Assembly (NCBI GenBank): GCA_963780095.1
Contig: CAWABH010000053.1
Span: 60,273-124,272 of the forward strand
DNA length: 64,000 nt
Direction of reading: 5' to 3'
DNA from: an uncultured Alphaproteobacteria bacterium
GTDB taxonomy: Bacteria > Pseudomonadota > Alphaproteobacteria > Acetobacterales > Acetobacteraceae
Part shown: positions 2,631 to 38,890 of the stretch, piece by piece
Position numbering within the stretch: the stretch's first letter is position 1
Layout of the letters: each line of letters begins with the position of its first letter
Program-made: the position numbers and the translations under genes
The notes under the pieces: model-generated
The model's database searches: none
What the model was told of the DNA's origin: nothing
What the model saw: only the letters and a program-made list of their open reading frames with translations

Positions 2631-3078
2631 GCGCATCGTCTCCGAGCACAGGCTGTTCGAGGGACTTGGCGAGGGGTTTGTCAATCTCGCGGCGGGATGC
2701 GCGAAGAATGTGCGGTTCAATGCTGACCAGTACCTGTTCCATGCCGAGGACCCGGCGGACTGGATCTATCTGATCCGTCACGGCCGCGTCGCACTGGAAA
2801 TGGCAACGCCAGGCCGTGGCGCGGTACAGTTCGAGACGCTGGGCGAGGGCGACATTGTCGGGCTGACCTGGCTGCTGCCGCCGTATCGCTGGGGCTACGA
2901 CGCGCGCGCGACCGAACTTGTGCGTGCAATCGCGCTCGATGCGAAGTGTCTGCGTGACAAGTGCGAGGTGGACCACGATCTCGGCTACGAACTGTTGAAA
3001 CGCTTCCTGCCCGTGCTGGTGCAACGGCTGCAGGCCATGCGACTGCAGCTTCTGGACGTCTATGGACCGCCTCGCTGA
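2617..3078 (+). CDS. cyclic nucleotide-binding domain protein (Crp/Fnr-type cNMP domain only, no HTH)
   Basis: [46 protein letters not shown] is a cNMP-binding beta-barrel. At 153 aa it is too short for a DNA-binding domain. RBS AGGAGG is upstream, and it overlaps the preceding gene by 14 nt. Confidence 0.75.
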
Positions 3079-3922
3079 ACGCCCGCCGTTGGTGGCCGCC
3101 GATGCCATGGTGCCGCGAATTGCGCGTGTGGCTCGGCGCGTGCGCGAGCTGCCCGACACCTGGACACTTGATCTGGTCTCGCCGGATGGCAGTCCGTTGA
3201 TGCGCTACGCGCCCGGTCAGTTCACCATGATGTACGTCCTTGGCGTCGGCGAGATCCCGGTCAGCATCAGCGGTGACGCGTCGGATGCAACGCGGCTCGT
3301 GCAGACCGTTCGCGCGGTCGGCAAGGTGAGCGAGGCGGTCACCAAACTGTCCCGCGGTGACACGCTCGGTCTCCGCGGTCCGTATGGCACCGCCTGGCCG
3401 GTGGCGGATGGCTATGGCCGCGACGTGGTTGTGGTTGCCGGCGGGCTGGGCCTCGCGCCGCTGCGGCCGGCGCTGTACCAGCTCCAGGCGGAGCGCAGGC
3501 GCTTCGGCAAGCTCGTGCTGCTATACGGGACGCGCCGGCCGGAGGACATTCTCTTCCGCCGGCAACTCGCGGGCTGGCGGCGACAGCTCGACATGGCGAT
3601 CGAGGTCACGGTCGATCGCGCCGGCACCGACTGGCGTGGCCATGTTGGGGTGGTGACCAAGCTGATTCCGCGCCTAGGCATCGATGCCGAAAATGCAATG
3701 GCACTGGTGTGCGGCCCGGAGGTGATGATGCGCTTCGCCGCGAGCGCGCTGAGCGACATCGGTATGCCGGACGAGACGATCCATCTATCGCTGGAACGCA
3801 ACATGAAATGCGCTGTCGGCCTGTGCGGCCACTGCCAGTTTGCCGGCAGTTTCGTCTGCAAGGACGGCGCCGTGATGCGCTACGACAATGTGCGCCGGTT
3901 GCTGGCGCTAAGGGAGATATGA
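3062..3922 (+). CDS. FAD/NAD(P)-binding oxidoreductase with C-terminal 2Fe-2S motif, gamma-type hydrogenase subunit (HyhG/HydG-like)
   Basis: Ferredoxin-reductase-like fold signatures are PGQFTMMYV and [14 protein letters not shown], with a C-terminal [20 protein letters not shown]. The alternative start is ATG 3107. Confidence 0.8.
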
Positions 3923-4692
3923 TGGCCGACCACCGCAAGCCCAAGCTCGCCGTCTGGAAATTCGCCTCCTGCGATGGCTGCCAGCTTTCGCTGCTCGACT
4001 GCGAGGACGAAATTCTGGCGGTGGCCGGCGCAATCGACATCGCGTATTTCCCCGAGGCAACCCGCGGTGTCGTGCGCGGGCCGTACGACGTGTCGCTGGT
4101 CGAGGGCTCGGTCACCACCCCGCATGACGCCGAACGGCTTCACGCGGTACGGCGGCAGACGCGCACGCTGATCACCATCGGCGCGTGCGCCACGGCGGGC
4201 GGCATCCAGGCGCTGCGCAACTTCAAGGACGTGCGCGAGTTCACTCAGGCAGTTTATGCGCGACCCGAGTTCATCGACACTCTGGCAACCTCCACGCCGA
4301 TCAAGGCGCATGTCAACGTCGATTACGAATTGCACGGCTGCCCGATCAGCAAGCAGCAGCTGCTCGAGGTGCTCACGGCCTTTCTCAACGCACGCAAGCC
4401 GAACATCCCGCCGCACAGCGTCTGCGTCGAATGCAAACTCCGTGGCACCGCCTGCGTTCTTGTGCGCGGCATCCCGTGCCTCGGCCCGGTGACACACGCC
4501 GGCTGTGGTGCAATCTGCCCCGCCTACAACCGCGGCTGCTATGGCTGTTTCGGTCCCATGGAGACGCCGAACACCGTATCGCTGAGCCGCAAGCTGGCTG
4601 CGTGCGGCGATGAAGGAGCGCGACCTTCAGCGCGTCTACAGCACGTTCAATGTCGGCGAGCCGCCGTTCCGCCAGGAAAGCGCGCGGCATGA
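3919..4692 (+). CDS. [NiFe]-hydrogenase small (delta/NuoB-like) subunit; C-terminal about 28 codons probably out of frame
   Basis: [31 protein letters not shown] and ..[38 protein letters not shown] carry the expected motifs. The ATG overlaps the upstream stop (ATGA). After ..KLAACG the tail becomes Arg/Ala/Pro-rich, while the +1 frame from 4610 reads [29 protein letters not shown] (to 4699). Confidence 0.8.
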
Positions 4693-5975
4693 ACCGTAAG
4701 ACGATCAAGGTCGATTACCTCGCCCGCGTGGAGGGCGAGGGCGGCGTGCGCATCACATTCGAGGACCGCATCGTGCGCAACGTCGAATTGCGCATATTCG
4801 AGCCGCCGCGCTTCTTCGAGGCCTTCCTGCGCGGACGCGACTATACCGAAGCGCCCGACATCACCGCGCGCATCTGTGGTATCTGCCCGGTCGCCTACCA
4901 GATGAGCGCGGTGCACGCGATGGAGGACGCGCTCGGCGTCACGGTCAGCGAACCTGTGCGGGAGCTACGGCGGCTGCTGTATTGCGGCGAATGGATCGAG
5001 AGCCACGTGCTTCACATCTACATGCTGCACGCGCCCGACTTCCTGGGCTACCAGGGCGCGATCGAGATGGCGAAGGACCATGGCGACGTCGTGCGCAAGG
5101 GCCTCGAACTGAAGAAGGTCGGCAACGAGATTCTGGAACTTCTCGGTGGGCGCGCGATCCATCCGGTCAATGTGCGGGTGGGCGGCTTCTACCGCACGCC
5201 TTCGCGCCGCGAGTTACGGCCCCTGGCCGAGAATCTGCGGCGCGCGCGCGACATCGCCCAGGCAACGGTGCGCTTTGTGTCCGGCTTCGATTTCCCCGAT
5301 TGCGAGCGCGACTACGAGTTTGTCGCACTCGGCGCGGCGGGCGAATACCCGTTCAACGCCGGCCACGTCGTGTCGAACAAGGGCTTGGACATCACGCCGC
5401 AGGAGTATGACGCGCATTTCGAGGAGTTGCATGTAAAGCGTTCCAACGCGCTGCACTCGCATTTGCGCGGCCGGCCCTACCTTACCGGCCCGATTGCGCG
5501 CTACAGCCTGAATTCCAATCTGCTCTCGCCGCTGGCGCGCGAGGCGGCGAAGGAGGCCGGGTTGGGCCCGACCTGCAACAATCCGTTCCGCAGCATTGTG
5601 GTGCGCGCGGTGGAGGTGGTGTACGCGTGCGACGAGGCGCTTCGCATTATCGATGCATACCAGGAGCCGGAGCACCCGCATCTCGATCTGTCGCCGCGTG
5701 CCGGGACTGGCTATGCCTGCACCGAAGCGCCGCGCGGCATGCTGTATCACCGTTACCGGCTGGACGCAGACGGAACCATCCAGGATGCCAAGATCGTGCC
5801 GCCGACTTCGCAGAATCAGCCGAGCATCGAGGACGATCTGAAGAACTTTGCCGCCGACTGGCTGGACATGCCGGAAGAAGCGCTGCGGATCCGCTGCGAG
5901 CAGGCGGTACGAAATCATGATCCATGTATCTCCTGCGCGACGCACTTTCTGAAGCTGGAAGTTGTGCGTGGCTGA
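4689..5975 (+). CDS. [NiFe]-hydrogenase large (alpha) subunit, group 3-like
   Basis: N-terminal [10 protein letters not shown] and C-terminal DPCISCATH nickel-binding motifs, followed by a short extension (FLKLEVVRG) for proteolytic maturation. Starts [19 protein letters not shown]. Confidence 0.9.
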
Positions 5976-6459
5976 GCGGCTGGTGCTCGGCATCGGCAAT
6001 CCTGATCGAGGCGACGATGCAGTGGGCCGGCTGATTGCGCGAACCCTGCGAACGCGAGTGCCGGCGGATGTGCAGGTTTCCGAACAGGACGGCGAAGCGA
6101 CGGCGCTCGTTGCCGAGCTTCAGTCAGCGCGACGTGCGTGGCTGATCGATGCTGCCCGATCCGGCGCCCCACCCGGCACGATCCAGCGCATCGATTGTTC
6201 CACCGCCGATCTTGCCACCGCGCTCGGCACCGTCTCGTCGCACGGCTTCGGTGTAGCCGAGGCGATTGCGCTCGCGCGTGCGCTGGAGGTGCTGCCGCTT
6301 CAGTGCATTGTCTATGCTGTCGAGGCGGCGGACTTCACCGACGGGGCTGTGCTGACGCACGCGGTGGCGAAAGCGATGGATAATGTCGTGGAGCAAATTC
6401 TGGCGGACCTACGGAGCCCCTCCCCGACCCTCCCCCGCTCGCGGGAGAGGGAGCCCTAA
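5962..6459 (+). CDS. hydrogenase maturation endopeptidase (HoxW/HyaD family)
   Basis: [16 protein letters not shown] ... SSHGFG are motifs of the HycI/HyaD protease family. It overlaps the large-subunit stop. The last about 14 codons lie inside a REP element. Confidence 0.8.
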
Positions 6460-10314: not shown

Positions 10315-10824
10315 CTAGGCTCCCTTAGGGTCGACGGAGAACGCCGCGGTGTCGTGGCCGATGCCGAGATTGACCCACCCGGTGTTGTCGGCGATGTCGT
10401 AGATGCCGTACGGCACCGCCTTGCCGAGTTCGGGAATAACGAAGTCGTGCACTCGAACTGGCTCGGGTTGTCCCTTGGGGCGCAGCTCACGGCCGGCATT
10501 CTTGAAGTCTCCGACGAGCTCTTTCTTCTTGGTGTCGACCGAGATCGCGGGTTCACCGGCAGCCTGGAACGCCTTCACTTCGGCGTTGATGTGCTCGAAT
10601 TGGGCGTTGCGGTCGGGGTGGCTTGCGCCTTCGCGCGTCTTGCTGTTGGCCTGGAGGCTGAAGCCCAGGCGGCGCAGCAAGCGGCCTACCAGCTTCTGGC
10701 CGGCGATGAAGCCCTGCTCCGCCAGCGCCGCAGACAGACGACGCTGGCTCTTGCTGACCCACAGCAGGGCAGCTTCGGGATCACCGCGAATGGACGACTG
10801 CACCAACTCGTTCAAGGCTTCCAA
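10315..10824 (-). mobile_element. ISAzo13-family transposase fragment (truncated at both ends; IS remnant)
   Basis: KTREGASHPDRNAQFEHIN...ISVDTKKKELVGDFKNAGRE...YGIYDIADNTGWVNLGIGHDTAAF matches the central DDE region of ISAzo13-type transposases as I recall them. Only about 170 aa are present and no terminal inverted repeats were identified. Confidence 0.6.
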
Positions 10825-10909
10825 AAGTCCAGGTTGGGTTCAATCGCCGGCTTACCGCCACCTCGCGCCGACGCACCCGGTTGCCAACGCGTGGGCGCGC
10901 AGCAGGCGA

Positions 10910-11896
10910 TTACGAGCCACGCCGATTGAGGGGCGAAGCAGTGTAGGCGGCTCCGACAAGGTCCATCGCGGCCGCCATGTCGGCGAGATCTGCGATTGGT
11001 TTTTCTCCGCAGGCGAAGCGACGGAGCGTGTCCTCGACGAACGTCGGGTAAAAGAACGAATTGGTGAGAGGCATCGAACGCGTCTCCCGCCTGCGTGAAT
11101 TGTCGAGTATCTCCAGCGTCTGGTTGTCGCGCGCGGCGAAATAGTGGCCTTCGGTGCGGATCGAGTAGTGCAGATCAAACACTGAATTCGGTGCGGGGTA
11201 GAGATAGCCGGTCTCCACCATGCAGGTTGCGCCGTCGCCGCGCATCAGCACAACCGCGTGGTCCTCGATGTCAAGTCCGGAAAAATTGTTCGACATCGCC
11301 GAGCCAACGACCTTCAGCTGTGTGTCCGGCAGCAGCACGCGGCAAAGATCGATGAAGTGCACGCCAAGATTGAGCAGCGGGCCGCCGCCGGCGGTCGCGC
11401 GGTGCAGCATCCATTCCACCCGCTGCTCGCGATAGCGGTCGATCATGCCGCCGACGAACTTGAACACGACGTACTGCACAGCCTCCCCAGCTGCAACCGC
11501 CCGGATCGTGTCGATCAGGGGGCTGTAGCGGATCACGAAAGGCACCGCCGCGAACACATTGGCCTGCGCGGCGCGAGCGGCGATGTCGTGCGCGTCCGCC
11601 GCGGTGACGGCGCAGGGCTTCTCCATTGCGAATGGAATGCGTTCGCCGATCAGGAAGCGCGCCTCGTCCGCCATGTCGCAATGCCGGCCGAGCGCGAACG
11701 CGAAGTCGGGCTTCAGCCGCGCGCACATTTCGCGGTAATCATCGAACGCCGGGCAACGCGCCTTCACGGCGACCTCCCGCGCGCGGGACAGGCCGGGGTC
11801 GCTGACCCCGACCACCGACACATCTGGAAGTGTCAGCACCGGGTCCAGGTAGAACGGCGTGTGCCAGTGCGACACACCGATCAGAACAACGCGCAT
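10910..11896 (-). CDS. Gfo/Idh/MocA-family oxidoreductase
   Basis: N-terminal Rossmann MRVVLIGVSHWH, EKPCAV motif, 328 aa. Confidence 0.75.
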   Translation of the reverse strand: MRVVLIGVSHWHTPFYLDPVLTLPDVSVVGVSDPGLSRAREVAVKARCPAFDDYREMCARLKPDFAFALGRHCDMADEARFLIGERIPFAMEKPCAVTAADAHDIAARAAQANVFAAVPFVIRYSPLIDTIRAVAAGEAVQYVVFKFVGGMIDRYREQRVEWMLHRATAGGGPLLNLGVHFIDLCRVLLPDTQLKVVGSAMSNNFSGLDIEDHAVVLMRGDGATCMVETGYLYPAPNSVFDLHYSIRTEGHYFAARDNQTLEILDNSRRRETRSMPLTNSFFYPTFVEDTLRRFACGEKPIADLADMAAAMDLVGAAYTASPLNRRGS

Positions 11897-11965: not shown

Positions 11966-12886
11966 ATGGCGATCCGGCTCTCGGAGAACTTTCGTGCGCT
12001 TTTCTACGCGCCGTTCTATGCCGCGCACGCCATCGGCGCCTACCAGTCCGAGGGCGTCGACGTAACGCTGCTGCCCTCGTCCGATCCCGCGCGCACGGCC
12101 GCCGCACTCCGCGCCGGCGACATCGACGTCATGTGGGGTGGCCCGTTGCGCGTACTGCTGACACATGCGCGGGAGCCGGCATCCGATACTGTCTGCATCT
12201 GCGACGTCATCGCGCGCGACCCGTTCTTCGTCATCGGCCGCGAGCCGCGCCCGGATTTCCGCTTTGCAGATCTTGCCGGCATTCGGTTCGCCTCGGTCGC
12301 CGAAGTGCCCACCCCGTGGCTATGCCTGCAGGATGACATACGCCGCGCCGGTATCGACCCCGCGAGATTGGACAGGATAAGCGGCCCCAGCATGGCCGAG
12401 AATGCGGAGGCGCTGCGTGCAGGTTCGATTGCTGCCGCACAACTATTCCAACCCTATGCCGAGGAGTTGATCGCATCTGGCGCAGGCCATGTCTGGTACG
12501 CCGCCGCGGATCGCGGCCTCACCGCCTATACGGTGCTGGTCACGCGTCGCCCGCTGCTCGACACGCGACGTGCCGAACTTCTCGCGATGACGCGCGCGAT
12601 GACGCGCACACTCCATTGGATGGCCGACACGCCGGGAAATGACATCGCCCGCGCCCTGAGCGCTTTCTTCCCCATGGTTGCACCCGACATTTTCGGCGCG
12701 GCAATCGACCGTTACCGCAAACTCCAACTTTTCGCGCCTGATCCGGTGCTGAAACGCGAAGGCTTCGATCGGCTGCAGGCTGCGATGCGCTCCGGCGGAG
12801 CACTCGACCGCGCAATTCCATTCGAGGCCTGCGTGGACAATTCACTCGCGGATCTGGCGATTGCCGACACTCGTCTTGCCGGATAA
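11966..12886 (+). CDS. NMT1/THI5-like (NitT/TauT-type) substrate-binding protein, no obvious signal peptide
   Basis: FYAPFYAAHAIGAYQSEGVDVTLLPS...DIDVMWGGP is typical of this family. ATG 11966 lies 5 nt after AGGAGGA. The ORF-track start 11258 is an antisense overlap artefact. Confidence 0.65.
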   Translation: MAIRLSENFRALFYAPFYAAHAIGAYQSEGVDVTLLPSSDPARTAAALRAGDIDVMWGGPLRVLLTHAREPASDTVCICDVIARDPFFVIGREPRPDFRFADLAGIRFASVAEVPTPWLCLQDDIRRAGIDPARLDRISGPSMAENAEALRAGSIAAAQLFQPYAEELIASGAGHVWYAAADRGLTAYTVLVTRRPLLDTRRAELLAMTRAMTRTLHWMADTPGNDIARALSAFFPMVAPDIFGAAIDRYRKLQLFAPDPVLKREGFDRLQAAMRSGGALDRAIPFEACVDNSLADLAIADTRLAG

Positions 12887-12930
12887 CGCTTCGCAACCAC
12901 ATACCGCCCGGGATGCCAGGGAGGCGTTCG

Positions 12931-14145
12931 ATGAACCGTCGAGGACTGATCGCAGGGGCCGGCGCGGCGGCGCTGGCTGCCGGTTCGGCAAGAGCCATGG
13001 AAAGGCCACGCTGGATGAGCCCGCTGCTGCCCGATGGAACACGGGATGAGGCGGTGGTCGAGACGCTGCCCGGCAAGCAAAAGCTGATCCGCCTCACCGA
13101 CCGGCCGCCGAACTATGAAACGCCGATCGACGTCTTCCGGACCGCGGTCACACCGAACGAGGACTTCTTCGTCCGCTACCATCTCGCCGGTATTCCGCCG
13201 ATGGCGGACCTGGGCAACTGGTCGCTGAGCGTTGGCGGCGAGGCAGCCGAACGGCAGATCACTCTCAGCCTCGACGATCTGCGGACGAACTTCGAACAGG
13301 TGGAGGTGGTCGCGGTTTGTCAATGTTCGGGCAATCGCCGCGGCCTGTCGTCGCCGCATGTTGCCGGTGTGGAGTGGGGCTACGGTGCGATGGGCAGTGC
13401 CGCGTGGAGTGGGCCGCGGTTGAAGGATGTGCTGGCCAAGGTCGGCGTGAAGGCAGGCGCGGTGGAAGTGTGGCTGGATGGCGCGGATGGGCCGGTGCTG
13501 CCGACCACGCCGGATTTCCACAAGAGCCTGCCGATGGACAAGGCATTGGCCGATGAAGTGATCATCGCCACGACGATGAACGGCGAGAAGCTGCCTCATC
13601 TGAACGGCTATCCCGCACGCGTTGTCGTTCCCGGATGGACCGCAACCTATTGGACCAAGCACGTCACCAGCATCCAGCTCAGTACCAGGCCGCTCGACAA
13701 CTTCTGGATGCAGAAGGCGTACCGCGTGCCCGCAGGCATGTTCCCGGTGGATCATCCTTTCCCGACACAGGACAATCAAACCACCTGGCCGATCACCGAC
13801 ATCGTGGTCAATTCGGTGGTCGCCGGTCCCATTGAGGGTACGCGCCTGACCGCTGCCGGATTTACCGTGCAGGGCGTGGCATGGGACCGCGGTCACGGCA
13901 TCAAGCTGGTCGAGGTCTCGCTCGATGGTGGGAAGACGTGGAAGGAGGCAAGCCTTCGCAAGGACCTGGGCCGCTTTGCCTTCCGCGCCTTCACCTTCCC
14001 TACGGGAAGGCTTTCCCCCGGCAACTACGTCGTCTCGTCGCGCGCCACCAACAATGCCGGCGAGACGCAGGTGGACAAGCTGAAGTTCAATCCCGCCGGG
14101 TACCATAACAATGTGCCGCAACAGGTCGCCGTGACCGTGGCATAG
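12931..14145 (+). CDS. sorA: molybdopterin-dependent sulfite dehydrogenase catalytic subunit (SorA-like), Tat-exported
   Basis: Twin-arginine leader MNRRGLIAGAGAAALAAGSARA. Mo-cysteine motif VAVCQCSGNRRG. C-terminal Ig-like dimerisation domain. Followed by a mono-haem cytochrome c gene. Confidence 0.8.
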   Translation: MNRRGLIAGAGAAALAAGSARAMERPRWMSPLLPDGTRDEAVVETLPGKQKLIRLTDRPPNYETPIDVFRTAVTPNEDFFVRYHLAGIPPMADLGNWSLSVGGEAAERQITLSLDDLRTNFEQVEVVAVCQCSGNRRGLSSPHVAGVEWGYGAMGSAAWSGPRLKDVLAKVGVKAGAVEVWLDGADGPVLPTTPDFHKSLPMDKALADEVIIATTMNGEKLPHLNGYPARVVVPGWTATYWTKHVTSIQLSTRPLDNFWMQKAYRVPAGMFPVDHPFPTQDNQTTWPITDIVVNSVVAGPIEGTRLTAAGFTVQGVAWDRGHGIKLVEVSLDGGKTWKEASLRKDLGRFAFRAFTFPTGRLSPGNYVVSSRATNNAGETQVDKLKFNPAGYHNNVPQQVAVTVA

Positions 14146-14155
14146 GGAGGCGCGC

Positions 14156-14443
14156 ATGTTTCGCTTTCTTCTGGTTGCCCCGCTGCTTTGCGCCACGCCC
14201 ACCCTGGCGCAGGAGGAGGTGGCGCTGAAGCCCGGTCCGGGACTGGATGAGGTCACGACAAGCTGCGCCGTCTGCCACACGCTGAACTACATCAAGATGA
14301 ACTCGGTGTTTCTCACGCCCGACGCCTGGAAGGCGGAGGTCACCAAGATGCGCGAGGCCCTCGGGGCGCCGATCGACGACGATACAGCGAACACCATCGT
14401 CAAGTACTTGTCCGCCACCTACGCGGCGCAGCCGAAGTCCTGA
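14156..14443 (+). CDS. sorB: mono-haem cytochrome c, SorB-like electron acceptor
   Basis: Signal peptide plus a single CAVCH haem-binding motif. Starts 11 nt after sorA. Confidence 0.7.
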   Translation: MFRFLLVAPLLCATPTLAQEEVALKPGPGLDEVTTSCAVCHTLNYIKMNSVFLTPDAWKAEVTKMREALGAPIDDDTANTIVKYLSATYAAQPKS

Positions 14444-14468
14444 AACTGGCGGGACCTACGCTATTCCC

Positions 14469-14790
14469 GTCATGGCCGTCCCCGGACTGGATCCCATAGG
14501 CGCTGACTTAGGGCCCTGGAACCGAGGTTTATCGTCATGGCCGTCCCCGGCCTTGATCCGGGGATCAGGCCCGGCCATCCACGCCTTGCTTTGCTGCGGT
14601 TCCCGAAGACGTGGATGGCCGGCACGAGGCATGTCCTCGGGCGGGCCTTCGGCCCGACCCGGGGGCCGGCCATGACGATGAGACAGCGATCCGTACGCTT
14701 AGGTTAGCGCCTATGGGACTGGATCCGGGGATCAGTCCCGGCCATCCACGACGTGTTGTCACGGACTGCTGAAAAGACCCGGCCATGACG
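14469..14790. repeat. cluster of nested REP-A elements
   Basis: At least three GTCATGGCCG../..CGGCCATGAC(G) arms, plus an outer inverted pair GGATCCCATAGGCGCT / AGCGCCTATGGGACTGGATCC, fill a 360-bp intergenic gap. Confidence 0.8.
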
Positions 14791-14804
14791 GTGAAGGGGC
14801 GGTA

Positions 14805-15551
14805 TTACAACAGCTGCCCGCCGTCCACGACGATGGTCTGGCCGGTGATCCAGGACGCGAGGGGCGAGGCGAGGAACAGCACCACATTCGCGACTTCCTC
14901 CGGGTGCCCGAGGCGCCCGAACGGAATGGAACGCAGGATCGCGTTATAGAGATTCGGATTGTCATCCTTCCGCCTGGCCCACACGCCGCCGGGAAATTCG
15001 ATCGAGCCAGGGGCCACGCCGTTCACGCGAATGCCGTCCTTCGCGTACATCGCGGCCTGTGTCGCCGTGTAATGCATCACCGCAGCCTTGATCGCGCCAT
15101 AGGGCGGCTGCCGCGCCGATGTCCGCATCGCTGAAATCGACGAGGTATTCACCACATTGCCCTTGGCGTCCCTGAGGAATGGCAGCGCGGTCTGGGTAGC
15201 GTGAACGATCGCCATCATGTCGACGGCCATGCTGACCGACCAGCCGGCCTCGTCGTCCGTCGAACCGAAACCGGATGCGTTGTTGACCAGAATATCGATC
15301 CCGCCGAGCGCCCGGGCCGCCGCGCCGATGTAGCCGCGGATTGCCGCGCCATCAGCGAGGTCGCAAACGCCGGAATGCGCCGTGTGGCCGAACTTCGCGA
15401 TCTCGGCGCGCGTCTGCTCGAGCGTCTCCGCACCACGGGCGCAGATCGAGACGGCGGCGCCGGCCTCGGCCAGGCCGAGTGCGATCGAACGTCCGATGCC
15501 GCGGCTGCCGCCGCACACCACGGCGCGCCTGCCGCTGAAATCGAAGGCCAT
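14805..15551 (-). CDS. SDR-family oxidoreductase (FabG-like)
   Basis: GGSRGIGRS cofactor motif, NNAS, and YGAIKAA catalytic Y-x3-K. 248 aa. Confidence 0.85.
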   Translation of the reverse strand: MAFDFSGRRAVVCGGSRGIGRSIALGLAEAGAAVSICARGAETLEQTRAEIAKFGHTAHSGVCDLADGAAIRGYIGAAARALGGIDILVNNASGFGSTDDEAGWSVSMAVDMMAIVHATQTALPFLRDAKGNVVNTSSISAMRTSARQPPYGAIKAAVMHYTATQAAMYAKDGIRVNGVAPGSIEFPGGVWARRKDDNPNLYNAILRSIPFGRLGHPEEVANVVLFLASPLASWITGQTIVVDGGQLL

Positions 15552-15563
15552 GGCATCATCCCC

Positions 15564-16325
15564 TCATTGGCTCATATGCGCGAGCGCATCCCGCATGGCA
15601 TGACTGGAAATCACGATCAAGCCGTCGAAGGGCGTGTCCATCTCCGTGATGATGAACAGGCAGGCGGCGAGTGCGACCGCGCATATGAAGAAGGCGCTGA
15701 TCACCGTCGCGTTGAGCGGCGCATTGTAGCCGAAACTGACAAAGATCAGGACGATCCAGGCGATCAGGATTACCAGGAAGACGGGCTGGATCGAGCTTTC
15801 GGCACGCTCGATCAGCAGCCAGCGCGTTTGCAGGATACCGTCCATCAGAGCAAGCGCACTGCCACGCAAGGCCTGGCGGGACGGATCGTTCGCCGGCAGC
15901 TCGACGATGGCAAGGTGTGCATCATGCAGCAGTTGCCCGGAGTTGGTGTCCTCCATCAGAACGCGCTGGCCGACCTCCTGCGGCCACTGGTCCTCGATCG
16001 CCCGCGCGGTGTAGTCGTGGAGCAGCTTCCGCGCCTTGCCCGCGTCCGGACCGTAGTCGCGCAGCGTCTGGTCGAGCAGGATCAGGTTGGCGGCGAACGT
16101 GCGGATCTGCCCGTCGGTCGCGTCGAACGAGTTCTTGATGCTGGCGGTCAGCAGCCCAAGCACCAGCGAGGCCAGTACGGAGATCATGCCCGTGCCGAGC
16201 TTGATGGCATCATGCGAGGACGCCGAACGGTGATTCTCCGGCAGCCACGCATTCAGCCATAATCCGACCATCGAGCCGGCGAACACGCAGGCAAAGACGA
16301 TCGATGCGAGCAGGTAGGAATCCAT
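15564..16325 (-). CDS. membrane protein, DUF4239-like (tentative)
   Basis: 253 aa with N- and C-terminal TM helices flanking a soluble helical region. Family assignment is from memory only. Confidence 0.55.
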   Translation of the reverse strand: MDSYLLASIVFACVFAGSMVGLWLNAWLPENHRSASSHDAIKLGTGMISVLASLVLGLLTASIKNSFDATDGQIRTFAANLILLDQTLRDYGPDAGKARKLLHDYTARAIEDQWPQEVGQRVLMEDTNSGQLLHDAHLAIVELPANDPSRQALRGSALALMDGILQTRWLLIERAESSIQPVFLVILIAWIVLIFVSFGYNAPLNATVISAFFICAVALAACLFIITEMDTPFDGLIVISSHAMRDALAHMSQ

Positions 16326-16473
16326 GGAGGGGCGGCCACCCGAGACGTCTTGCTGTCACTCTGCGGTTACGGCTGGAGTCTGTCCAAGGGAGCACCTAGA
16401 TGTGACGGCCCAGGCAGCCACCTGTCGCAGTTGTTCAAGGAACTGAAATGATTTCTCAGGTATCCTCCGGCTC

Positions 16474-17055
16474 GTGACCTTCATCACCGATCTCGCGGAT
16501 CAGGCTGTCGTTCTGCCGCTCGTCCTCGCCATTGGCATTGCGTTGCTGGCGCAGGGCTGGCGGCGCGGTGCCGCGGCCTGGGCGGTGACGGTGGTCGCGA
16601 CTTTCGCCGCGATGCTGGCGTTGAAACTCATCTTTCTTGCCTGCTCGCACAGCTTCGGCCATATCGATATTCGTACCCCGAGCGGCCACGTCGCCGCCGC
16701 CACGGTCGTCACTGGCGGCCTCGCCGCTCTGCTGCTCCGCCGGCGCGCCAGTGTCCTGCCCCTGGCCGCCCTCGCCGCGATCGTGGTCGGTATTTCGCGC
16801 CTGGCGCTCGGCGCCCATTCGCTACCCGAGGTTGTGCTCGGCGCGATTGTGGGGTTGGCCGGTGCGTATGCTTTGCCGCTGCTGGCAGGTCCGCTGCCTT
16901 CGGGGCTCGATGTGCGACGCATTGCCATCGTTGCGGCGGCAATCGTCCTGGTGTTCCACGGACTGCATTTTCCCGCCGAGGCGCATATCCGTGCCACGGC
17001 ATTCCGGTTCGCACATATTCTTGCGGTTTGTCAGTCCGACGACGTTCGGTTGTAG
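16474..17055 (+). CDS. PAP2-family phosphatase (membrane)
   Basis: PSGH and SRLALGAHSLPEV motifs (acid phosphatase motifs C2/C3), multiple TM helices. Confidence 0.75.
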   Translation: MTFITDLADQAVVLPLVLAIGIALLAQGWRRGAAAWAVTVVATFAAMLALKLIFLACSHSFGHIDIRTPSGHVAAATVVTGGLAALLLRRRASVLPLAALAAIVVGISRLALGAHSLPEVVLGAIVGLAGAYALPLLAGPLPSGLDVRRIAIVAAAIVLVFHGLHFPAEAHIRATAFRFAHILAVCQSDDVRL

Positions 17056-18464
17056 ACGTCGTCGAGGCGCACGATATCGTCCTCACCGAGATAGGCGCCG
17101 GACTGCACCTCGATCAGCGTAAGCGGGATTTTCCCGGGATTTTCCAGGCGGTGAACGCAGCCCAGCGGCAGGTAGACACTCTCGTTCTCGCGCACCAGCA
17201 GGGTCTCGTTGTCGCGCGTAACCAGGGCGCTGCCGCGCACCACCACCCAGTGTTCGGCGCGATGAAAGTGCTTCTGCAGCGAGAGTTTGCGCCCGGGTGA
17301 CACGACGAGGCGCTTCACCTGGAAGCGCTCGCCCCGAATCAGGCTCTCGAAAAAGCCCCAGGGACGGTACAGCCGATTGTGTGCAACTGCCTCATGCCGC
17401 CCGGCGGCCTTCAGCCGGTCGACGACCTTCTTCACGTCCTGCGCCCGGTCACGATGCATGGCAAGCACCGCGTCTTCGGTCACCACGACGACGGCGTCGT
17501 CCAGGCCGACCACGGCGGCCAGCATCCCATCGCTGCGGACGTAGCAATTGCGGGCACCCTCCAGCAGCACGTCGCCGACCGCGACATTGCCGTCTGCGTC
17601 CTTGTGTCCCAGTTCCCACAGCGCACCCCAGCTGCCGACATCCGACCAGCCGATATCGGCCGGCACGACGGCAGCGTGGGTCGTGCGTTCGGCGACGGCA
17701 TAATCCAGGCTGATCGAGGGGCTGGCGGAGAACGCCTCGACGCCGAGGCGGATGAAATCAAGGTCCTCGTGCCGCTCCGCGACGGCCAGGCGGACGGCGC
17801 GAAGCACGTCCGGCGCGTGCGTCGCCATCTCGTCGAGCAGTGTCCGTGCGGTGAAGACGAACATCCCCGAATTCCAGAGATGCTGCCGGTCGGTGGCGAG
17901 GCGCGCCGCCGTTGCCGCATCAGGCTTCTCGATGAAGCGGGCGACCGCGAACACCCCCGGCGCATCGTCCAGAGCGGCGCCGATCTCGATATAGCCGTAA
18001 CCGGTTTCGGGCGCGGCCGGACGCATGCCGAATGTCACCACGCGCCCGGCGTGCGCCGCCACCGCAGCCGCGGCGAAGCTGCGGCGCAGCGAGGCGGTAT
18101 CGGCGATCACATGGTCGGCGGCCAGCATCCACAGAATCGCGTCCGGGTCGTCTTCCGCGACGAGGACCGCTGCCGCGGCGATCGCGGGCGCGCTGTTGCG
18201 CCCGACCGGCTCCAGCACGATGCGGGCATCGTTTATGTTCACGGCGCGGAGCTGCTCGGCGATCAGGAACCTGTGCTCCTGGTTGCACACGACCACCGGC
18301 GGGGCGAAGCCATCGCCGTGCGCCCGCAGCGCCGTCTCCTGAAGCAGCGTGCGGTCCGAGACGAGCGGCCAGAGCTGCTTGGGAAAGCTCTCGCGCGAAA
18401 CCGGCCATAGTCGCGTGCCGGAGCCGCCGGACAGGATGACCGGGATGATGCGGTGCTCGCTCAT
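17031..18464 (-). CDS. manC: mannose-1-phosphate guanylyltransferase / mannose-6-phosphate isomerase (bifunctional)
   Basis: PVILSGGSGTRLWPVSR N-terminal nucleotidyltransferase motif and a C-terminal cupin (LSLQKHFHRAEHWVVV). 477 aa. Confidence 0.9.
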   Translation of the reverse strand: MSEHRIIPVILSGGSGTRLWPVSRESFPKQLWPLVSDRTLLQETALRAHGDGFAPPVVVCNQEHRFLIAEQLRAVNINDARIVLEPVGRNSAPAIAAAAVLVAEDDPDAILWMLAADHVIADTASLRRSFAAAAVAAHAGRVVTFGMRPAAPETGYGYIEIGAALDDAPGVFAVARFIEKPDAATAARLATDRQHLWNSGMFVFTARTLLDEMATHAPDVLRAVRLAVAERHEDLDFIRLGVEAFSASPSISLDYAVAERTTHAAVVPADIGWSDVGSWGALWELGHKDADGNVAVGDVLLEGARNCYVRSDGMLAAVVGLDDAVVVVTEDAVLAMHRDRAQDVKKVVDRLKAAGRHEAVAHNRLYRPWGFFESLIRGERFQVKRLVVSPGRKLSLQKHFHRAEHWVVVRGSALVTRDNETLLVRENESVYLPLGCVHRLENPGKIPLTLIEVQSGAYLGEDDIVRLDDVYNRTSSD

Positions 18465-18629
18465 GGGGCAACAGTGTGCCTCAACAGGGATGGATTCACC
18501 ACAAAGGCATTACCGGCGCGAGGGAGACACGGTCCCTACGGTTCTTCGGTTTCGATCGCGAATGCCTGCTTGCCGCCTGCGACGGCAGGTGCCACGGTGC
18601 CGCGGCTTCCCAAGAAAGGAGATCACAGG

Positions 18630-18848
18630 ATGCAGGTCGAAATCGAATACTGCGGGGCGTGAGGCTATGAGCCGCGCGCCCGTGCGGTGCGGGACATGAT
18701 GATCGGCAGGATGCCAACAGCCCAGGTTGCCCTGCGCAAGTCTGGTGGCGGCGTCTTCGAGATCACGGTGGACGGGAGGCTTGCCTATTCCAAGAAGGCG
18801 AGCGGCCGGTTCCCGACAGACGAGGAAGTGCTTGGTACTCTCGGCTGA
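18630..18848 (+). CDS. selW: SelW/Rdx-family selenoprotein; TGA 18660-18662 read as selenocysteine
   Basis: Read-through translation gives MQVEIEYCGA-U-GYEPRARAVRDMMIGRMPTAQVALRKSGGGVFEITVDGRLAYSKKASGRFPTDEEVLGTLG*. The CGAUGY redox motif and G.G.FE(I/V).V.G.L..SK...G.FP match SelW. RBS GGAG lies 8-9 nt upstream. The ORF track shows only a fragment ending at the TGA. Confidence 0.75.
18671..18688 (+). promoter_or_regulatory. candidate bacterial SECIS hairpin
   Basis: GCCGCGC-GCCC-GUGCGGU forms a 7-bp stem (two G-U pairs) with a 4-nt loop, starting 8 nt 3' of the UGA. The position is right for a bSECIS; loop identity was not evaluated. Confidence 0.4.
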
Positions 18849-18938
18849 TCAAGTGTCCCCCAAACGGCGCCGGTGCCTGCCGCGTGACGGCGGCAATTCA
18901 GCGAAGGTGGTCTCGCTGGCGACAGTCAGAGACAACGC

Positions 18939-20408
18939 GTGACATTCGATCCAAATTGGGTGCAGAGGCTCGCGGGCCGGCCGGAGTTGCTGCCTCCGGA
19001 CGACATGGCGCGTGCAGACGCTGCGTCGCCCTCGCTCGGCGTGCCTGGGCCGACGCTGATGGAGAATGCCGGCAGGGCGGTGGCGCGCGCCATTCGAGCA
19101 CGGTTTCCCTCGTGCCGGACCATTGTGCTGGCGGGCCCTGGCAACAACGGCGGCGACGGCTACGTCGCCGCGCGGCTACTTCAGCAGGAAGGATGGCCGG
19201 TCACCCTTGCGGCATTGGCACCCCCGCGTGCGGGCTCCGACGCGGCCGATGCCGCTTCTCGCTGGCACGGACCATCTGCGTCCTTCGCGCCGGCCGAGTC
19301 AGCGCGTGCGGAACTGGTGGTCGATGCCGTGTTCGGCGCCGGCCTCGCGCGCGATGTGGACGGCATCGCCGCCGACACGTTGCGTGCGGCCCGGCGTGTC
19401 GTGGCGGTCGATGTGCCGAGCGGGCTCGACGGCGCGACAGGCGCGGTGCGCGGATATGCGCCGGAGGCAGCGATGACGGTCTCATTCTTCCGGCTCAAGC
19501 CAGGACATCTTCTGCTGCCAGGCCGCGTGCTCTGCGGCGAGATCGCGCTCGCCGATATCGGGTTGCCTCGGGCCGTTCTGCAGCAGGTACGGGCAAGCAT
19601 TTTCGCCAATCTGCCGGAACTGTGGCGCGTGCCGACGCCCGAACCGGACTCGCACAAGTATTCGCGCGGTCATGTCACCGTGGCGGGCGGCGCGACCATG
19701 ACCGGGGCGGCAAGGCTGGCTGCGGATGCGGCACGGCGCGGCGGTGCCGGCCTGGTGACGATCGCCGCATTCGGCCGCGGCGATATCTATCGGTCGGGCT
19801 CGCCGGGCGTCCTGGTCAGCGATTCGTCATTGGCCGAACTGCTCGAGGACAAGCGGCGGCATGTGTGGGTGTGCGGACCTGGACTGGGGCCGGATGCGGC
19901 TCGCGCCACGTTGCCGTTGCTGCTGGCTGCCGGTCGCTGCGTCGTCGCAGATGCCGACGTGTTTTCTGCCTTCGCCGGCGATCCCGACGCATTGCGGGGC
20001 GCCGCCGTTCTCACGCCGCATGCCGGCGAATTCGCCCGCACCTTCGGGAGTATCGGCGAGGACCGGATCGCTGCCGCTCGCGCTGCGGCCGCACGCACCG
20101 GTGCGGTCGTGCTGCTGAAGGGGGCCGACACGATCATCGCCGCGCCCGACGGCAAGGTTGCGATCAACGCCTCTGCGCCACCGTGGCTCGCGACCGCTGG
20201 GTCAGGCGATGTGCTGTCCGGCCTGATCGGGGGCTTGCTTGCCCAGGGCATGGCTCTCTGGGACGCCGCGGCCGCGGGGGCCTTCCTGCATGGCCGCGCT
20301 GCCGTGCTCGCCGGGCCGGGACTTGTGGCGGAAGACCTGCTTCCCGCGCTCACACCTGCGCTGGCGGCGACAACATCTCAATCGCATCTGTCGCGCAGGT
20401 CGCTATGA
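18939..20408 (+). CDS. nnr: bifunctional NAD(P)H-hydrate epimerase / ADP-dependent dehydratase
   Basis: YjeF-N (LMENAGRAVA..GPGNNGGDGYVAA) and YjeF-C carbohydrate-kinase domains (HKYSRGHV..GSGDVLSG). GTG start. Confidence 0.85.
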   Translation: MTFDPNWVQRLAGRPELLPPDDMARADAASPSLGVPGPTLMENAGRAVARAIRARFPSCRTIVLAGPGNNGGDGYVAARLLQQEGWPVTLAALAPPRAGSDAADAASRWHGPSASFAPAESARAELVVDAVFGAGLARDVDGIAADTLRAARRVVAVDVPSGLDGATGAVRGYAPEAAMTVSFFRLKPGHLLLPGRVLCGEIALADIGLPRAVLQQVRASIFANLPELWRVPTPEPDSHKYSRGHVTVAGGATMTGAARLAADAARRGGAGLVTIAAFGRGDIYRSGSPGVLVSDSSLAELLEDKRRHVWVCGPGLGPDAARATLPLLLAAGRCVVADADVFSAFAGDPDALRGAAVLTPHAGEFARTFGSIGEDRIAAARAAAARTGAVVLLKGADTIIAAPDGKVAINASAPPWLATAGSGDVLSGLIGGLLAQGMALWDAAAAGAFLHGRAAVLAGPGLVAEDLLPALTPALAATTSQSHLSRRSL

Positions 20409-20436
20409 TCGTCGCCCAAAGCGAGGAAATGCCTGC

Positions 20437-21816
20437 ATGAGCGATATCGCCGTCCCCGGTCTGCTCGACCGGGCCATTCGCCGCATCACCACGGTCTGGC
20501 GTGACATGGCGGCTGGCGTGCAGGACGAGTCGATCACAGCCCAGATGCGCGCCTGTCTGGGCGGACGCGGCGGCGAAGTGAGCGCCCGCAATCGCGCCGC
20601 CAAGCTGGCTGAAACATATCAGGGTCTGGACGAAGCAGGACGCCGGGAATTCCTGCGCACCCTGGCCAGCTTCGATTCCGATCCTGATGCCGTGGCAACA
20701 GCCTACGGCGCGGTGCAGGCCGCGACCGACCCTGCCGAGCGCGCCACCGCAAAGGCCGCCCTGCGGCGCGCGCTGGAGCCGCCGCGTCTGCGGCTGCTGA
20801 CCCAGTTCACCACCATACCGGATGGGCGGAAATTTCTGGTCGACCTGCGCGGCTTCCTGCTGAAGATACGCCGGGACGACAAGCTGCTGGCGGCGTTGGA
20901 GGCTGACCTGCGCAGCCTGCTCGGCGCCTGGTTCGATATCGGTTTCCTCGAGTTGCAGCGGATCGACTGGAACAGCCCCGCCGCGCTGCTGGAGAAGCTG
21001 GTGGGCTACGAGGCGGTGCACGAAATCCGCTCCTGGCGCGATCTGAAGAACCGGCTGGATTCCGATCGACGGTGCTACGCCTTCTTCCACCCCCGCATGC
21101 CCGGCGAGCCGCTGATCTTCGTCGAGGTGGCGCTGGTGAAGGGGCTGGCCGGCAGCGTGCAGCGTCTGCTCGACGAGAAGGCGCCACTGCTCGATCCGCG
21201 CGAGGCGGATACCGCGATCTTCTATTCGATCAGCAACTGCCAGCAGGGACTGGCGGGGATCAGTTTCGGCAATCTCCTGATCAAGCGCGTGGTCGAGGAA
21301 CTGTCGCCCGAGTTCCGCAACCTGAAGACGTTCGCAACGCTGTCGCCGATCCCCGGCTTCCGTGCCTGGCTGGACGAGAAGCTCGCCTCGGACCAGCCAG
21401 GCCTGCTGTCGGACGAGGAGGCTGCCAGCCTCGCCTCGGCGATGCCGGCGCCGTCGGGCGATCAGGCGCTGGCGAAGATCCTGGCGAAGCGCGGCTGGTG
21501 GCGCGAGGTGGGGCTGCGCAAGACGGTGGAACCCGTGCTGGTGCGGCTCTGTGCGCGGTATCTGCTCGTCGAGTCCAATGGCGGCAAGCGGGCGCGCGAT
21601 CCGGTGGCGCATTTCCACCTGTCGAACGGTGCGCGGGTGGAACGGATCAACATACTGGGCGATACGTCGGAGAAGGGCGCCAAGGAAAGCGCCACGCTGA
21701 TGGTCAATTACCTGTATGATCCGGCGAAGATCGAGGACTGGCACGAGGACTACGCCGGCGAGGGCAAGCGCAACGCGTCCACCACCGTGCGCAAGCTGGC
21801 GCGGGGATGGAGTTGA
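20437..21816 (+). CDS. malonyl-CoA decarboxylase
   Basis: 459 aa. CYAFFHPRMPGEPLIFVEVAL, FYSISNCQQGL, ATLSPIPGF and DPVAHFHLSNGA are MCD-family hallmarks. ATG 20437. Confidence 0.85.
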   Translation: MSDIAVPGLLDRAIRRITTVWRDMAAGVQDESITAQMRACLGGRGGEVSARNRAAKLAETYQGLDEAGRREFLRTLASFDSDPDAVATAYGAVQAATDPAERATAKAALRRALEPPRLRLLTQFTTIPDGRKFLVDLRGFLLKIRRDDKLLAALEADLRSLLGAWFDIGFLELQRIDWNSPAALLEKLVGYEAVHEIRSWRDLKNRLDSDRRCYAFFHPRMPGEPLIFVEVALVKGLAGSVQRLLDEKAPLLDPREADTAIFYSISNCQQGLAGISFGNLLIKRVVEELSPEFRNLKTFATLSPIPGFRAWLDEKLASDQPGLLSDEEAASLASAMPAPSGDQALAKILAKRGWWREVGLRKTVEPVLVRLCARYLLVESNGGKRARDPVAHFHLSNGARVERINILGDTSEKGAKESATLMVNYLYDPAKIEDWHEDYAGEGKRNASTTVRKLARGWS

Positions 21817-37603: not shown

Positions 37604-37678
37604 TGGTGGGCGCGACAGGGATTGAACCTGTGGCCCCCGCCATGTCAAGGCGGTGCTCTCCCGCTGAGCTACGCGCCC
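37604..37678 (-). tRNA. tRNA-Val(GAC): tRNA-Val (anticodon GAC)
   Basis: The reverse complement folds as a cloverleaf: GGGCGCG/TA/GCTC-AGCGGGA-GAGC/A/CCGCC-TTGACAT-GGCGG/GGGCC/ACAGG-TTCAATC-CCTGT/CGCGCCC-A-CCA. Confidence 0.95.
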
Positions 37679-38654: not shown

Positions 38655-38890
38655 ACCGGCGGCGCAAAAAAATGGCGACGCTTGTGGCGCCGCCAAGTTT
38701 AGGGAGGAAACGTCCAAGAAAGCAGACAGCGCGACCAGGGGCCGCATTGCTGCGATGCACAATCTAGGCGACCGGTCGTTCGTCTGCAAGTGATATTTTG
38801 CAATGCAGCATTGTTCGCGGGCGGGGACCCTTGGTGCGTAAAGCGAACGATGGCAACGGCCTGCTAACCGTTGGCGGTTATCGTCTGGCC

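Follow-up and report, generated by a model that had tools for sequence, protein, structure and literature searches.

A SelW-like gene with an in-frame UGA that probably encodes a selenoprotein in an alphaproteobacterial genome

The 64 kb stretch of DNA analysed here (the window) carries at positions 18630-18848 of the forward strand a SelW-like gene, which is with high probability (about 0.88) a gene decoding an in-frame UGA as selenocysteine (Sec). The region is proposed to be one functional gene for a 72-residue redox protein of thioredoxin fold, belonging to the bacterial SelW-like type (Rdx, CxxU), in which the UGA at 18660-18662 would be no stop. A hairpin in the mRNA (18672-18693, loop CGUGC) is expected to recruit SelB with Sec-tRNA(Sec), and the Sec inserted would be the second residue of the redox centre Cys8-x-x-Sec11. 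The protein is predicted to act as a thiol/selenol oxidoreductase. The main residual doubt is whether the Sec machinery is still present in this particular genome.

The frame opened by ATG 18630 contains TGA at codon 11, followed by 61 open codons up to the terminal TGA at 18846-18848. Translation of 18630-18848 yields the product MQVEIEYCGA-U-GYEPRARAVRDMMIGRMPTAQVALRKSGGGVFEITVDGRLAYSKKASGRFPTDEEVLGTLG, which begins MQVEIEYCGA-U-GYEPRAR and comprises 72 residues with U counted. The mechanical ORF list gives this gene as two halves only (18453..18662 and 18687..18848), while an earlier note on this DNA had joined them; the coordinates that it gave for the ATG, the internal TGA and the stop agree with those re-read here, and the two motifs that it assigned to the 72-residue product, CGA-U-GY and GGGVFEITVDGRLAYSKKASGRFP, are both seen in the translation. 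The ribosome-binding site that it placed before the ATG corresponds to AGGAG at 18617-18621. The GC-rich hairpin that it described is present after the UGA, starting 9 nt and not 8 nt behind it, which is a trivial correction. A consensus scan of 18400-19000 returned no sigma-70 promoter or intrinsic terminator. The features of the gene are as follows.

18617..18621, forward strand: Shine-Dalgarno-like AGGAG, 8 nt 5' of ATG 18630
18630..18848, forward strand: coding sequence of the probable SelW-like (Rdx family) selenoprotein, 72 codons including Sec, plus TGA stop
18651..18662, forward strand: predicted CxxU redox motif Cys8-Gly-Ala-Sec11, from translation and conservation
18660..18662, forward strand: in-frame UGA at codon 11, putatively read as Sec; a conserved TGA in orthologues
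18687..18848, forward strand: truncated ORF of 53 aa with GTG start, from the mechanical ORF list

Orthologues were taken from a scan of one genome per GTDB species, in which the best 80 of at least 462 loci were retained; they derive from 78 alphaproteobacterial genomes (MAGs) of Acetobacteraceae, Rhodopila, Hyphomicrobiaceae, Xanthobacteraceae and unclassified Alphaproteobacteria. The best match among the 80 loci is 89% identical, and protein identity extends down to about 62%. Codon 1 is ATG and codon 11 TGA in 80/80 of these loci (the best 80 of at least 462), a coincidence far beyond chance, and both Cys8 and the TGA at codon 11 are present in 81/81 aligned sequences. Residues I5, E6, Y7, C8 and G9 are 98-100% conserved over the 81 sequences. 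Codons 5-9 and 12-17 display 96-100% amino-acid conservation together with synonymous variation at Y7, G9, Y13 and E14, and all four Gly9 codons (GGC 42, GGA 18, GGT 13, GGG 8) and both Tyr7 codons are in use. By this pattern of substitution, selection acts on the protein sequence of the ten codons 5' of the TGA, in the frame that continues beyond it. The peptide encoded downstream, on whose conservation in frame the earlier note had let its interpretation depend, is conserved as well, and the constraint lies on both sides of the TGA.

The length of 72 aa is kept in 73/79 orthologues, and GGAG, GAGG or AGGA lies 5-18 nt 5' of the ATG in 64/79. At the internal codon neither TAA nor TAG ever occurs, although both serve as terminal stop among the 79 orthologues (TGA 63, TAA 9, TAG 7). 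In the window, TGA is the commonest ordinary stop and terminates 22 of the 34 ORFs of at least 200 aa, which argues that TGA is not reassigned genome-wide. Alignment with Cys-containing homologues, as proposed earlier, places the TGA column opposite Cys in P0004, P0006, P0008 and P0012. Two genomes each carry two copies of the TGA gene on different contigs; those of JBJXDZ01 (L064, L073) differ in sequence and look like paralogues, while those of DASXNR01 (L018, L069) are near-identical, perhaps through duplication in the assembly.

With U replaced by C for profile searches, the window protein matches Pfam PF10262 Rdx over residues 2-68 (E=5.4e-19, 68.6 bits against a cut-off of 22.6) and NCBIfam TIGR02174 CXXU_selWTH (63 bits against a cut-off of 34.2), both above cut-off, as the SelW/Rdx assignment in the earlier note had led one to expect. 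The closest named model is NF041051 SelTWH_Campy, whose score of 80 bits is under the equivalog cut-off of 88, and the gene thus falls outside that exact Campylobacter orthologue group. Sequence matches in the PDB include MIEN1, Atu0228, SAV_2001 and mouse SelW, the last with E=3e-5. On these profile matches, the window protein is assigned to the Rdx / SelT-SelW-SelH superfamily.

The fold was modelled on a proxy, P0006, the closest true Cys homologue (70% identity over 71 residues), whose AlphaFold model has a pLDDT of 95.4 and the order b1(2-8)-a1(14-27)-b2-b3-b4-a2, where the CxxC/U motif joins strand 1 (residues 2-8) to helix 1 (14-27). This model superimposes on the SelW-related crystal structures 2fa8, 2obk, 2oka, 2ojl and 2p0g with TM 0.89-0.93 (0.92 for 2fa8), on mouse SelW (2npb) with TM 0.69 and on thioredoxins with TM of 0.61 or less. 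The closest solved structures are those of Cys-form Rdx proteins, namely Atu0228 (2fa8) and the proteins from P. fluorescens (2obk) and V. cholerae (2p0g), which share 27-35% identity at an rmsd of about 1.0-1.3 A to the P0006 model; they differ from the window protein in containing CxxC (e.g. YCTQC), in being about 100 aa long with extra termini, and in needing no recoding. By way of this close homologue, the window protein is predicted to have the thioredoxin-like fold b1-a1-b2-b3-b4-a2.

The region following the UGA can form a SECIS-like hairpin, which occupies nt 13-34 when the U of the UGA is numbered 1.

18672..18693, forward strand: SECIS-like hairpin CCGCGCGCC-CGUGC-GGUGCGGG, 8 pairs, one bulged G
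18681-18685, forward strand: apical loop of the hairpin, 5 nt, containing G23 and U24 (numbered from the U of UGA)

The 8-pair helix was proposed from the commonest single-sequence fold, and its pairing was then counted on the ungapped alignment. Over 81 sequences the hairpin begins 9 nt after the UGA, with a bulge at position 15 and a loop that is usually CGUGC. The window sequence forms 8/8 pairs (-12.5 kcal/mol), and its own MFE structure (-15.1) is a slight variant in which G23 and U24 still lie in the loop. In 80 distinct sequences, 86.6% of the cells are paired; sliding the 3' partners by 1-3 columns lowers this to 24-56%. In 11 sequences the pair G19-C29 is G19-U29 instead, and 3 have U18-A30 in place of C18-G30. 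Double changes occur at pair 18-30 only; the observed covariation score is 0.060, shuffling gives a mean of 0.051 with 19/500 shuffles attaining the observed value, and RNAalifold on the 81 sequences retains 3 consensus pairs only. A seven-sequence DNA alignment displays about 40 nt after the TGA that are almost invariant, while third positions vary in the remainder of the gene. The entropy of four-fold sites is 0.69 bits in the hairpin vs 1.36 elsewhere in the gene (Mann-Whitney p=3.6e-5), and at Y13 and E14, two-fold sites immediately 5' of the hairpin, it reaches the maximum of 1.0 bit. Arg18, whose codon supplies loop C22, G23 and U24, uses the otherwise rare CGT in 60/65 CGN codons; G23 is found in 68/80 sequences and U24 in 62/80. 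The hairpin overlaps the highly conserved peptide EPRARA. In this alignment, suppressed synonymous change is the stronger hairpin signal and covariation a weak one. The SECIS element foreseen in the earlier note accordingly has its counterpart in a stem-loop at the right distance, with a small loop containing G, even if covariation is weak.

A single-sequence fold of 18660-18720 is no stabler than shuffles (z=0.25), a null result that is expected and uninformative for a sequence of 65% GC, and comparative analysis was used in its place. At the hairpin, Rfam had no real match, SECIS or other, either at the gathering threshold or with E up to 10. Four metagenomic Cys forms with TGT/TGC at the Sec codon (L094:751, L095:3112, L098:155 and L096:3031) were noticed; the contig of L094 has a coverage of 1.7x, and a sequencing error is possible there. 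The nearest Cys-form homologues were fetched as a control for Sec specificity, and 3/4 of them keep the identical hairpin; this control is without discrimination, and conservation of the hairpin is not demonstrably Sec-specific. The hairpins of these Cys forms look like fossil SECIS elements left by a recent Sec-to-Cys conversion.

The E. coli fdhF element, extracted from the genome for comparison, is likewise a coding-region hairpin after the UGA, with the loop G22-G23-U24-C25 and a G23-U24 spacing equal to that of the window hairpin. The two differ in stem sequence, in the loop (4-nt GGUC in fdhF vs 5-nt CGUGC here) and in the bulge (U17 in fdhF vs G at position 15 here, where SelB binding is putative). 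G23 and U24 of fdhF are contacts of SelB, and the bulged U17 has a role too.

Protein databases mostly hold incomplete versions of this gene. Most of the 120 best matches are fragments of 45-57 aa (commonly 49-53 aa) starting just after the position of the TGA, which is what the earlier note had predicted of standard gene callers. The exact 53-aa truncated window product has been called as P0007 on L001, a 910-bp JGI metagenome contig that is the only identical nucleotide sequence found. The JGI calls P0001, P0002, P0003 and P0005 contain CGMWGY, and two of them, P0003 and P0005, terminate in …LGW; both features correspond to TGA read as Trp, so that TGA stands at the Sec column and as the stop of these genes. 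In all four of these calls, which have run-on tails, a TGA=Trp code has been misapplied to alphaproteobacterial contigs. True Cys forms number 4 among the 120 best matches and contain CGHCGY, CGMCGY, CGQCGY and CVPCGY. The general statement in the earlier note that most bacterial Rdx/SelW-like proteins use Cys therefore does not hold for this clade, in which TGA is found in 80/80 loci (best 80 of at least 462) and Cys in just 4 of the 120 best database matches.

No selA, selB or selD was found within the 64 kb window by tblastn with E. coli SelA, SelB and SelD, and no tRNA-Sec by ARAGORN, which located one tRNA, for Val. The machinery search also covered about 1.5 Mb of orthologous loci, of which two were informative. 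In L029 (MFD10113.bin.3.538, an uncultured member of the Alphaproteobacteria), a selD homologue (about 10377-11425, minus strand, with frameshifts) lies directly downstream of the SelW-like gene, and about 4.5 kb further an FdnG-type formate dehydrogenase contains NQARV-TGA-HGPTVASLAPTFGRGAMTN, whose TGA (15062-15064) is the canonical Sec site ARV-U-HGP. The SelW-like TGA gene, selD and the FdnG-type gene of this locus are clustered within about 5 kb (L029:10001-17545). In L088, a selA-like gene (12638-13745) is situated 2.4 kb downstream of the orthologue; it is 44-73% identical to E. coli SelA in pieces and split over frames, probably by long-read frameshifts, as the source is a long-read MAG. 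A 'SelB' match in L046 was rejected as IF-2, adjoining NusA. Judging by the neighbours in L029 and L088, some genomes at least combine the orthologue with the Sec trait, and by extension from these two loci selA, selB, selC and selD are presumed to be present in the source genome.

Four other readings of the locus have been weighed against Sec decoding. That the TGA is a true stop, leaving either a nonsense pseudogene or, as the real gene, the 53-aa ORF from GTG 18687, agrees with the output of a Prodigal-type caller but is extremely unlikely, for the TGA occupies the same codon in all 80 loci from 78 genomes (best 80 of at least 462), the upstream 10 codons vary synonymously under selection on their amino acids, TAA and TAG occur at the terminal stop but never at the internal codon, ATG and ribosome-binding site are conserved, and the 53-aa product would lack the CxxU centre entirely, along with strand 1 and half of helix 1. 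There is a negligible chance that the TGA stands for a TGC/TGT misread in sequencing or assembly: a few low-coverage metagenome contigs do have TGT/TGC at codon 11 (L094, L095, L096, L098), but 80 independent assemblies, produced by different technologies, all have this TGA, as does the identical contig L001. The fixed TGA, the coding constraint on both sides of it and the varying terminal stop together effectively rule out a pseudogene, two separate ORFs, a sequencing error and a global change of code.

Another reading has the UGA recoded to a residue other than Sec, for instance to Cys by a Sec-like tRNA or to Trp/Gly in near-cognate readthrough; sequence analysis does not tell which residue is inserted, and that some JGI pipelines read TGA as W is a choice of software and no evidence. 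This reading is nevertheless highly improbable, given that the codon stands where CxxC homologues have their redox Cys (the classic Sec/Cys pair), that the spacing of the hairpin and its loop G-U are as in the experimentally defined fdhF SECIS, that selD and a canonical Sec-FdnG lie beside the orthologue in L029, and that TGA serves as the commonest ordinary stop in the window. It is also improbable, if somewhat less so, that the gene is a relic, that is, an ancestral selenoprotein gene in a genome which has lost the machinery, so that the UGA terminates translation after 10 residues. Bacteria commonly lose the Sec trait (PMC1794560), and the window is devoid of Sec machinery genes and tRNA-Sec; 64 kb, however, is about 1-2% of a genome, and absence from it says little. 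The window copy is intact in its ATG, ribosome-binding site, CxxU, 8/8 hairpin pairs and full downstream frame, with no frameshift, its identical sequence was independently recovered in a JGI metagenome (L001), and in lineages that lose the trait the usual outcome is TGC/TGT in place of the TGA, or absence of the gene. A Sec-decoding SelW-like gene remains the preferred reading.

The SelW-like gene is divergent from a ManC-type mannose-1-phosphate guanylyltransferase gene (17031-18464, minus strand) and is followed by genes for Nnr (18939-20408), an enzyme of NAD(P)HX repair, and malonyl-CoA decarboxylase. The gene adjoins ManC again in L002-L011 and, as a Cys form, in L096, with different genes downstream; the context thus provides no functional clue. 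The ORF of Nnr (489 aa, YjeF_N + Carb_kinase) overlaps an ORF on the same strand in a different frame (18884-20440, 518 aa), which is probably a high-GC shadow frame. The ORF of malonyl-CoA decarboxylase, with TTG 20239 as its start, overlaps the 3' end of Nnr, and its true start is therefore probably further downstream. To the left of the SelW-like gene (12913-17055) are located a SorA-like molybdopterin oxidoreductase (12913-14145), a 95-aa ORF (14156-14443), an SDR (14805-15551, minus strand), a bestrophin-like protein (15564-16325, minus strand) and a PAP2 protein (16474-17055); the same gene order, the bestrophin-like gene excepted, is found in L008, L009 and L010.

Elsewhere, the window contains a [NiFe]-hydrogenase cluster (3062-6459), in which the large subunit (4650-5975, Pfam NiFeSe_Hases) ends in HDPCISC and is thus of the Cys type and no selenoenzyme, while the ORF at 5962-6459 is, from gene order, a probable hydrogenase maturation protease. 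A crude scan for other window frames joined across TGA returned only high-GC shadow frames, which were rejected. About 1 kb from the tRNA gene, Rfam further identifies an alphaproteobacterial mmgR/suhB sRNA, which scores 47.7 bits (gathering score 41).

38658-38730, reverse strand: mmgR/suhB sRNA
37604-37678, reverse strand: tRNA-Val(GAC)

The CxxU motif, the family and the coding-region SECIS are textbook knowledge, and NCBI maintains HMMs for the family. Ever since the earliest surveys of prokaryotic selenoproteomes, SelW-like CxxU selenoproteins have been on record in bacteria. Bacterial SelW-like CxxU proteins with a hairpin SECIS containing a loop G have been described (PMC1088965, PMC1794560, PMC4607533), the minimal bacterial SECIS being a hairpin of 5-6 bp with an invariant loop G (PMC4607533, PMC1088965). 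Among the selenoprotein families of the Sargasso Sea data, SelW-like proteins ranked first in abundance, with 48 Sec vs 7 Cys forms, compared with 4 Sec vs 20 Cys in the then-complete genomes (PMC1088965), and Sec has been inferred as the original state of the family (PMC1794560). Another count has SelW-like selenoproteins in 35 of >5,200 genomes (PMC5029168), and in Epsilonproteobacteria they were 'completely missed' by annotation (PMC4607533). Campylobacter SelW and the Sargasso Sea SelW-like proteins resemble the window gene in being single domains of about 70-75 aa with an N-terminal CxxU, and share with it the UGA followed by a short hairpin with a loop G, as well as being missed or truncated by annotation (PMC1088965, PMC4607533). 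The window gene differs from Campylobacter SelW in its NF041051 score below cut-off and in its hosts, which are soil alphaproteobacterial MAGs.

Mammalian SELENOW shares the Rdx thioredoxin-like fold with the family of the window protein, but the relation is distant and orthology is not established. The motif YCGAUGY of human and mouse SelW is the same local motif as in the window protein. The SECIS of mammalian SELENOW is a kink-turn element in the 3' UTR, in contrast to the coding-region hairpin here (PMC1088965).

The gene is a member of a known family operating via a known mechanism, and no new mechanism is involved. What is mildly new is the alphaproteobacterial host range, since FdhA was the sole selenoprotein family recorded for Alphaproteobacteria in a survey of 2006 (PMC1794560), and, again mildly, the near-fixation of Sec in this clade (best 80 of at least 462 loci). 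It may tentatively be suggested, as a possibility with the odds against it, that the gene marks a large and almost wholly unannotated clade of Sec-form SelW-like proteins, in which Sec is essentially fixed, spread over at least 78 genomes at species level, of Alphaproteobacteria living mainly in soil and peat (Acetobacteraceae, Rhodopila, Hyphomicrobiaceae, Xanthobacteraceae). If so, Sec use in aerobic soil Alphaproteobacteria would be much broader than in the FdhA-only picture of early surveys, and public catalogues would systematically hide a Sec clade behind 50-aa calls or wrong-code translations. The catalogues searched here do contain >100 truncated (about 50 aa) or wrong-code versions of the SelW-like gene, so that the half bearing the active site is absent from databases and the Sec trait of these MAGs is under-counted. 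For a group of soil Alphaproteobacteria, the SelW-like gene would add a second selenoprotein family besides formate dehydrogenase, and it would imply a selenium requirement for a small redox protein.
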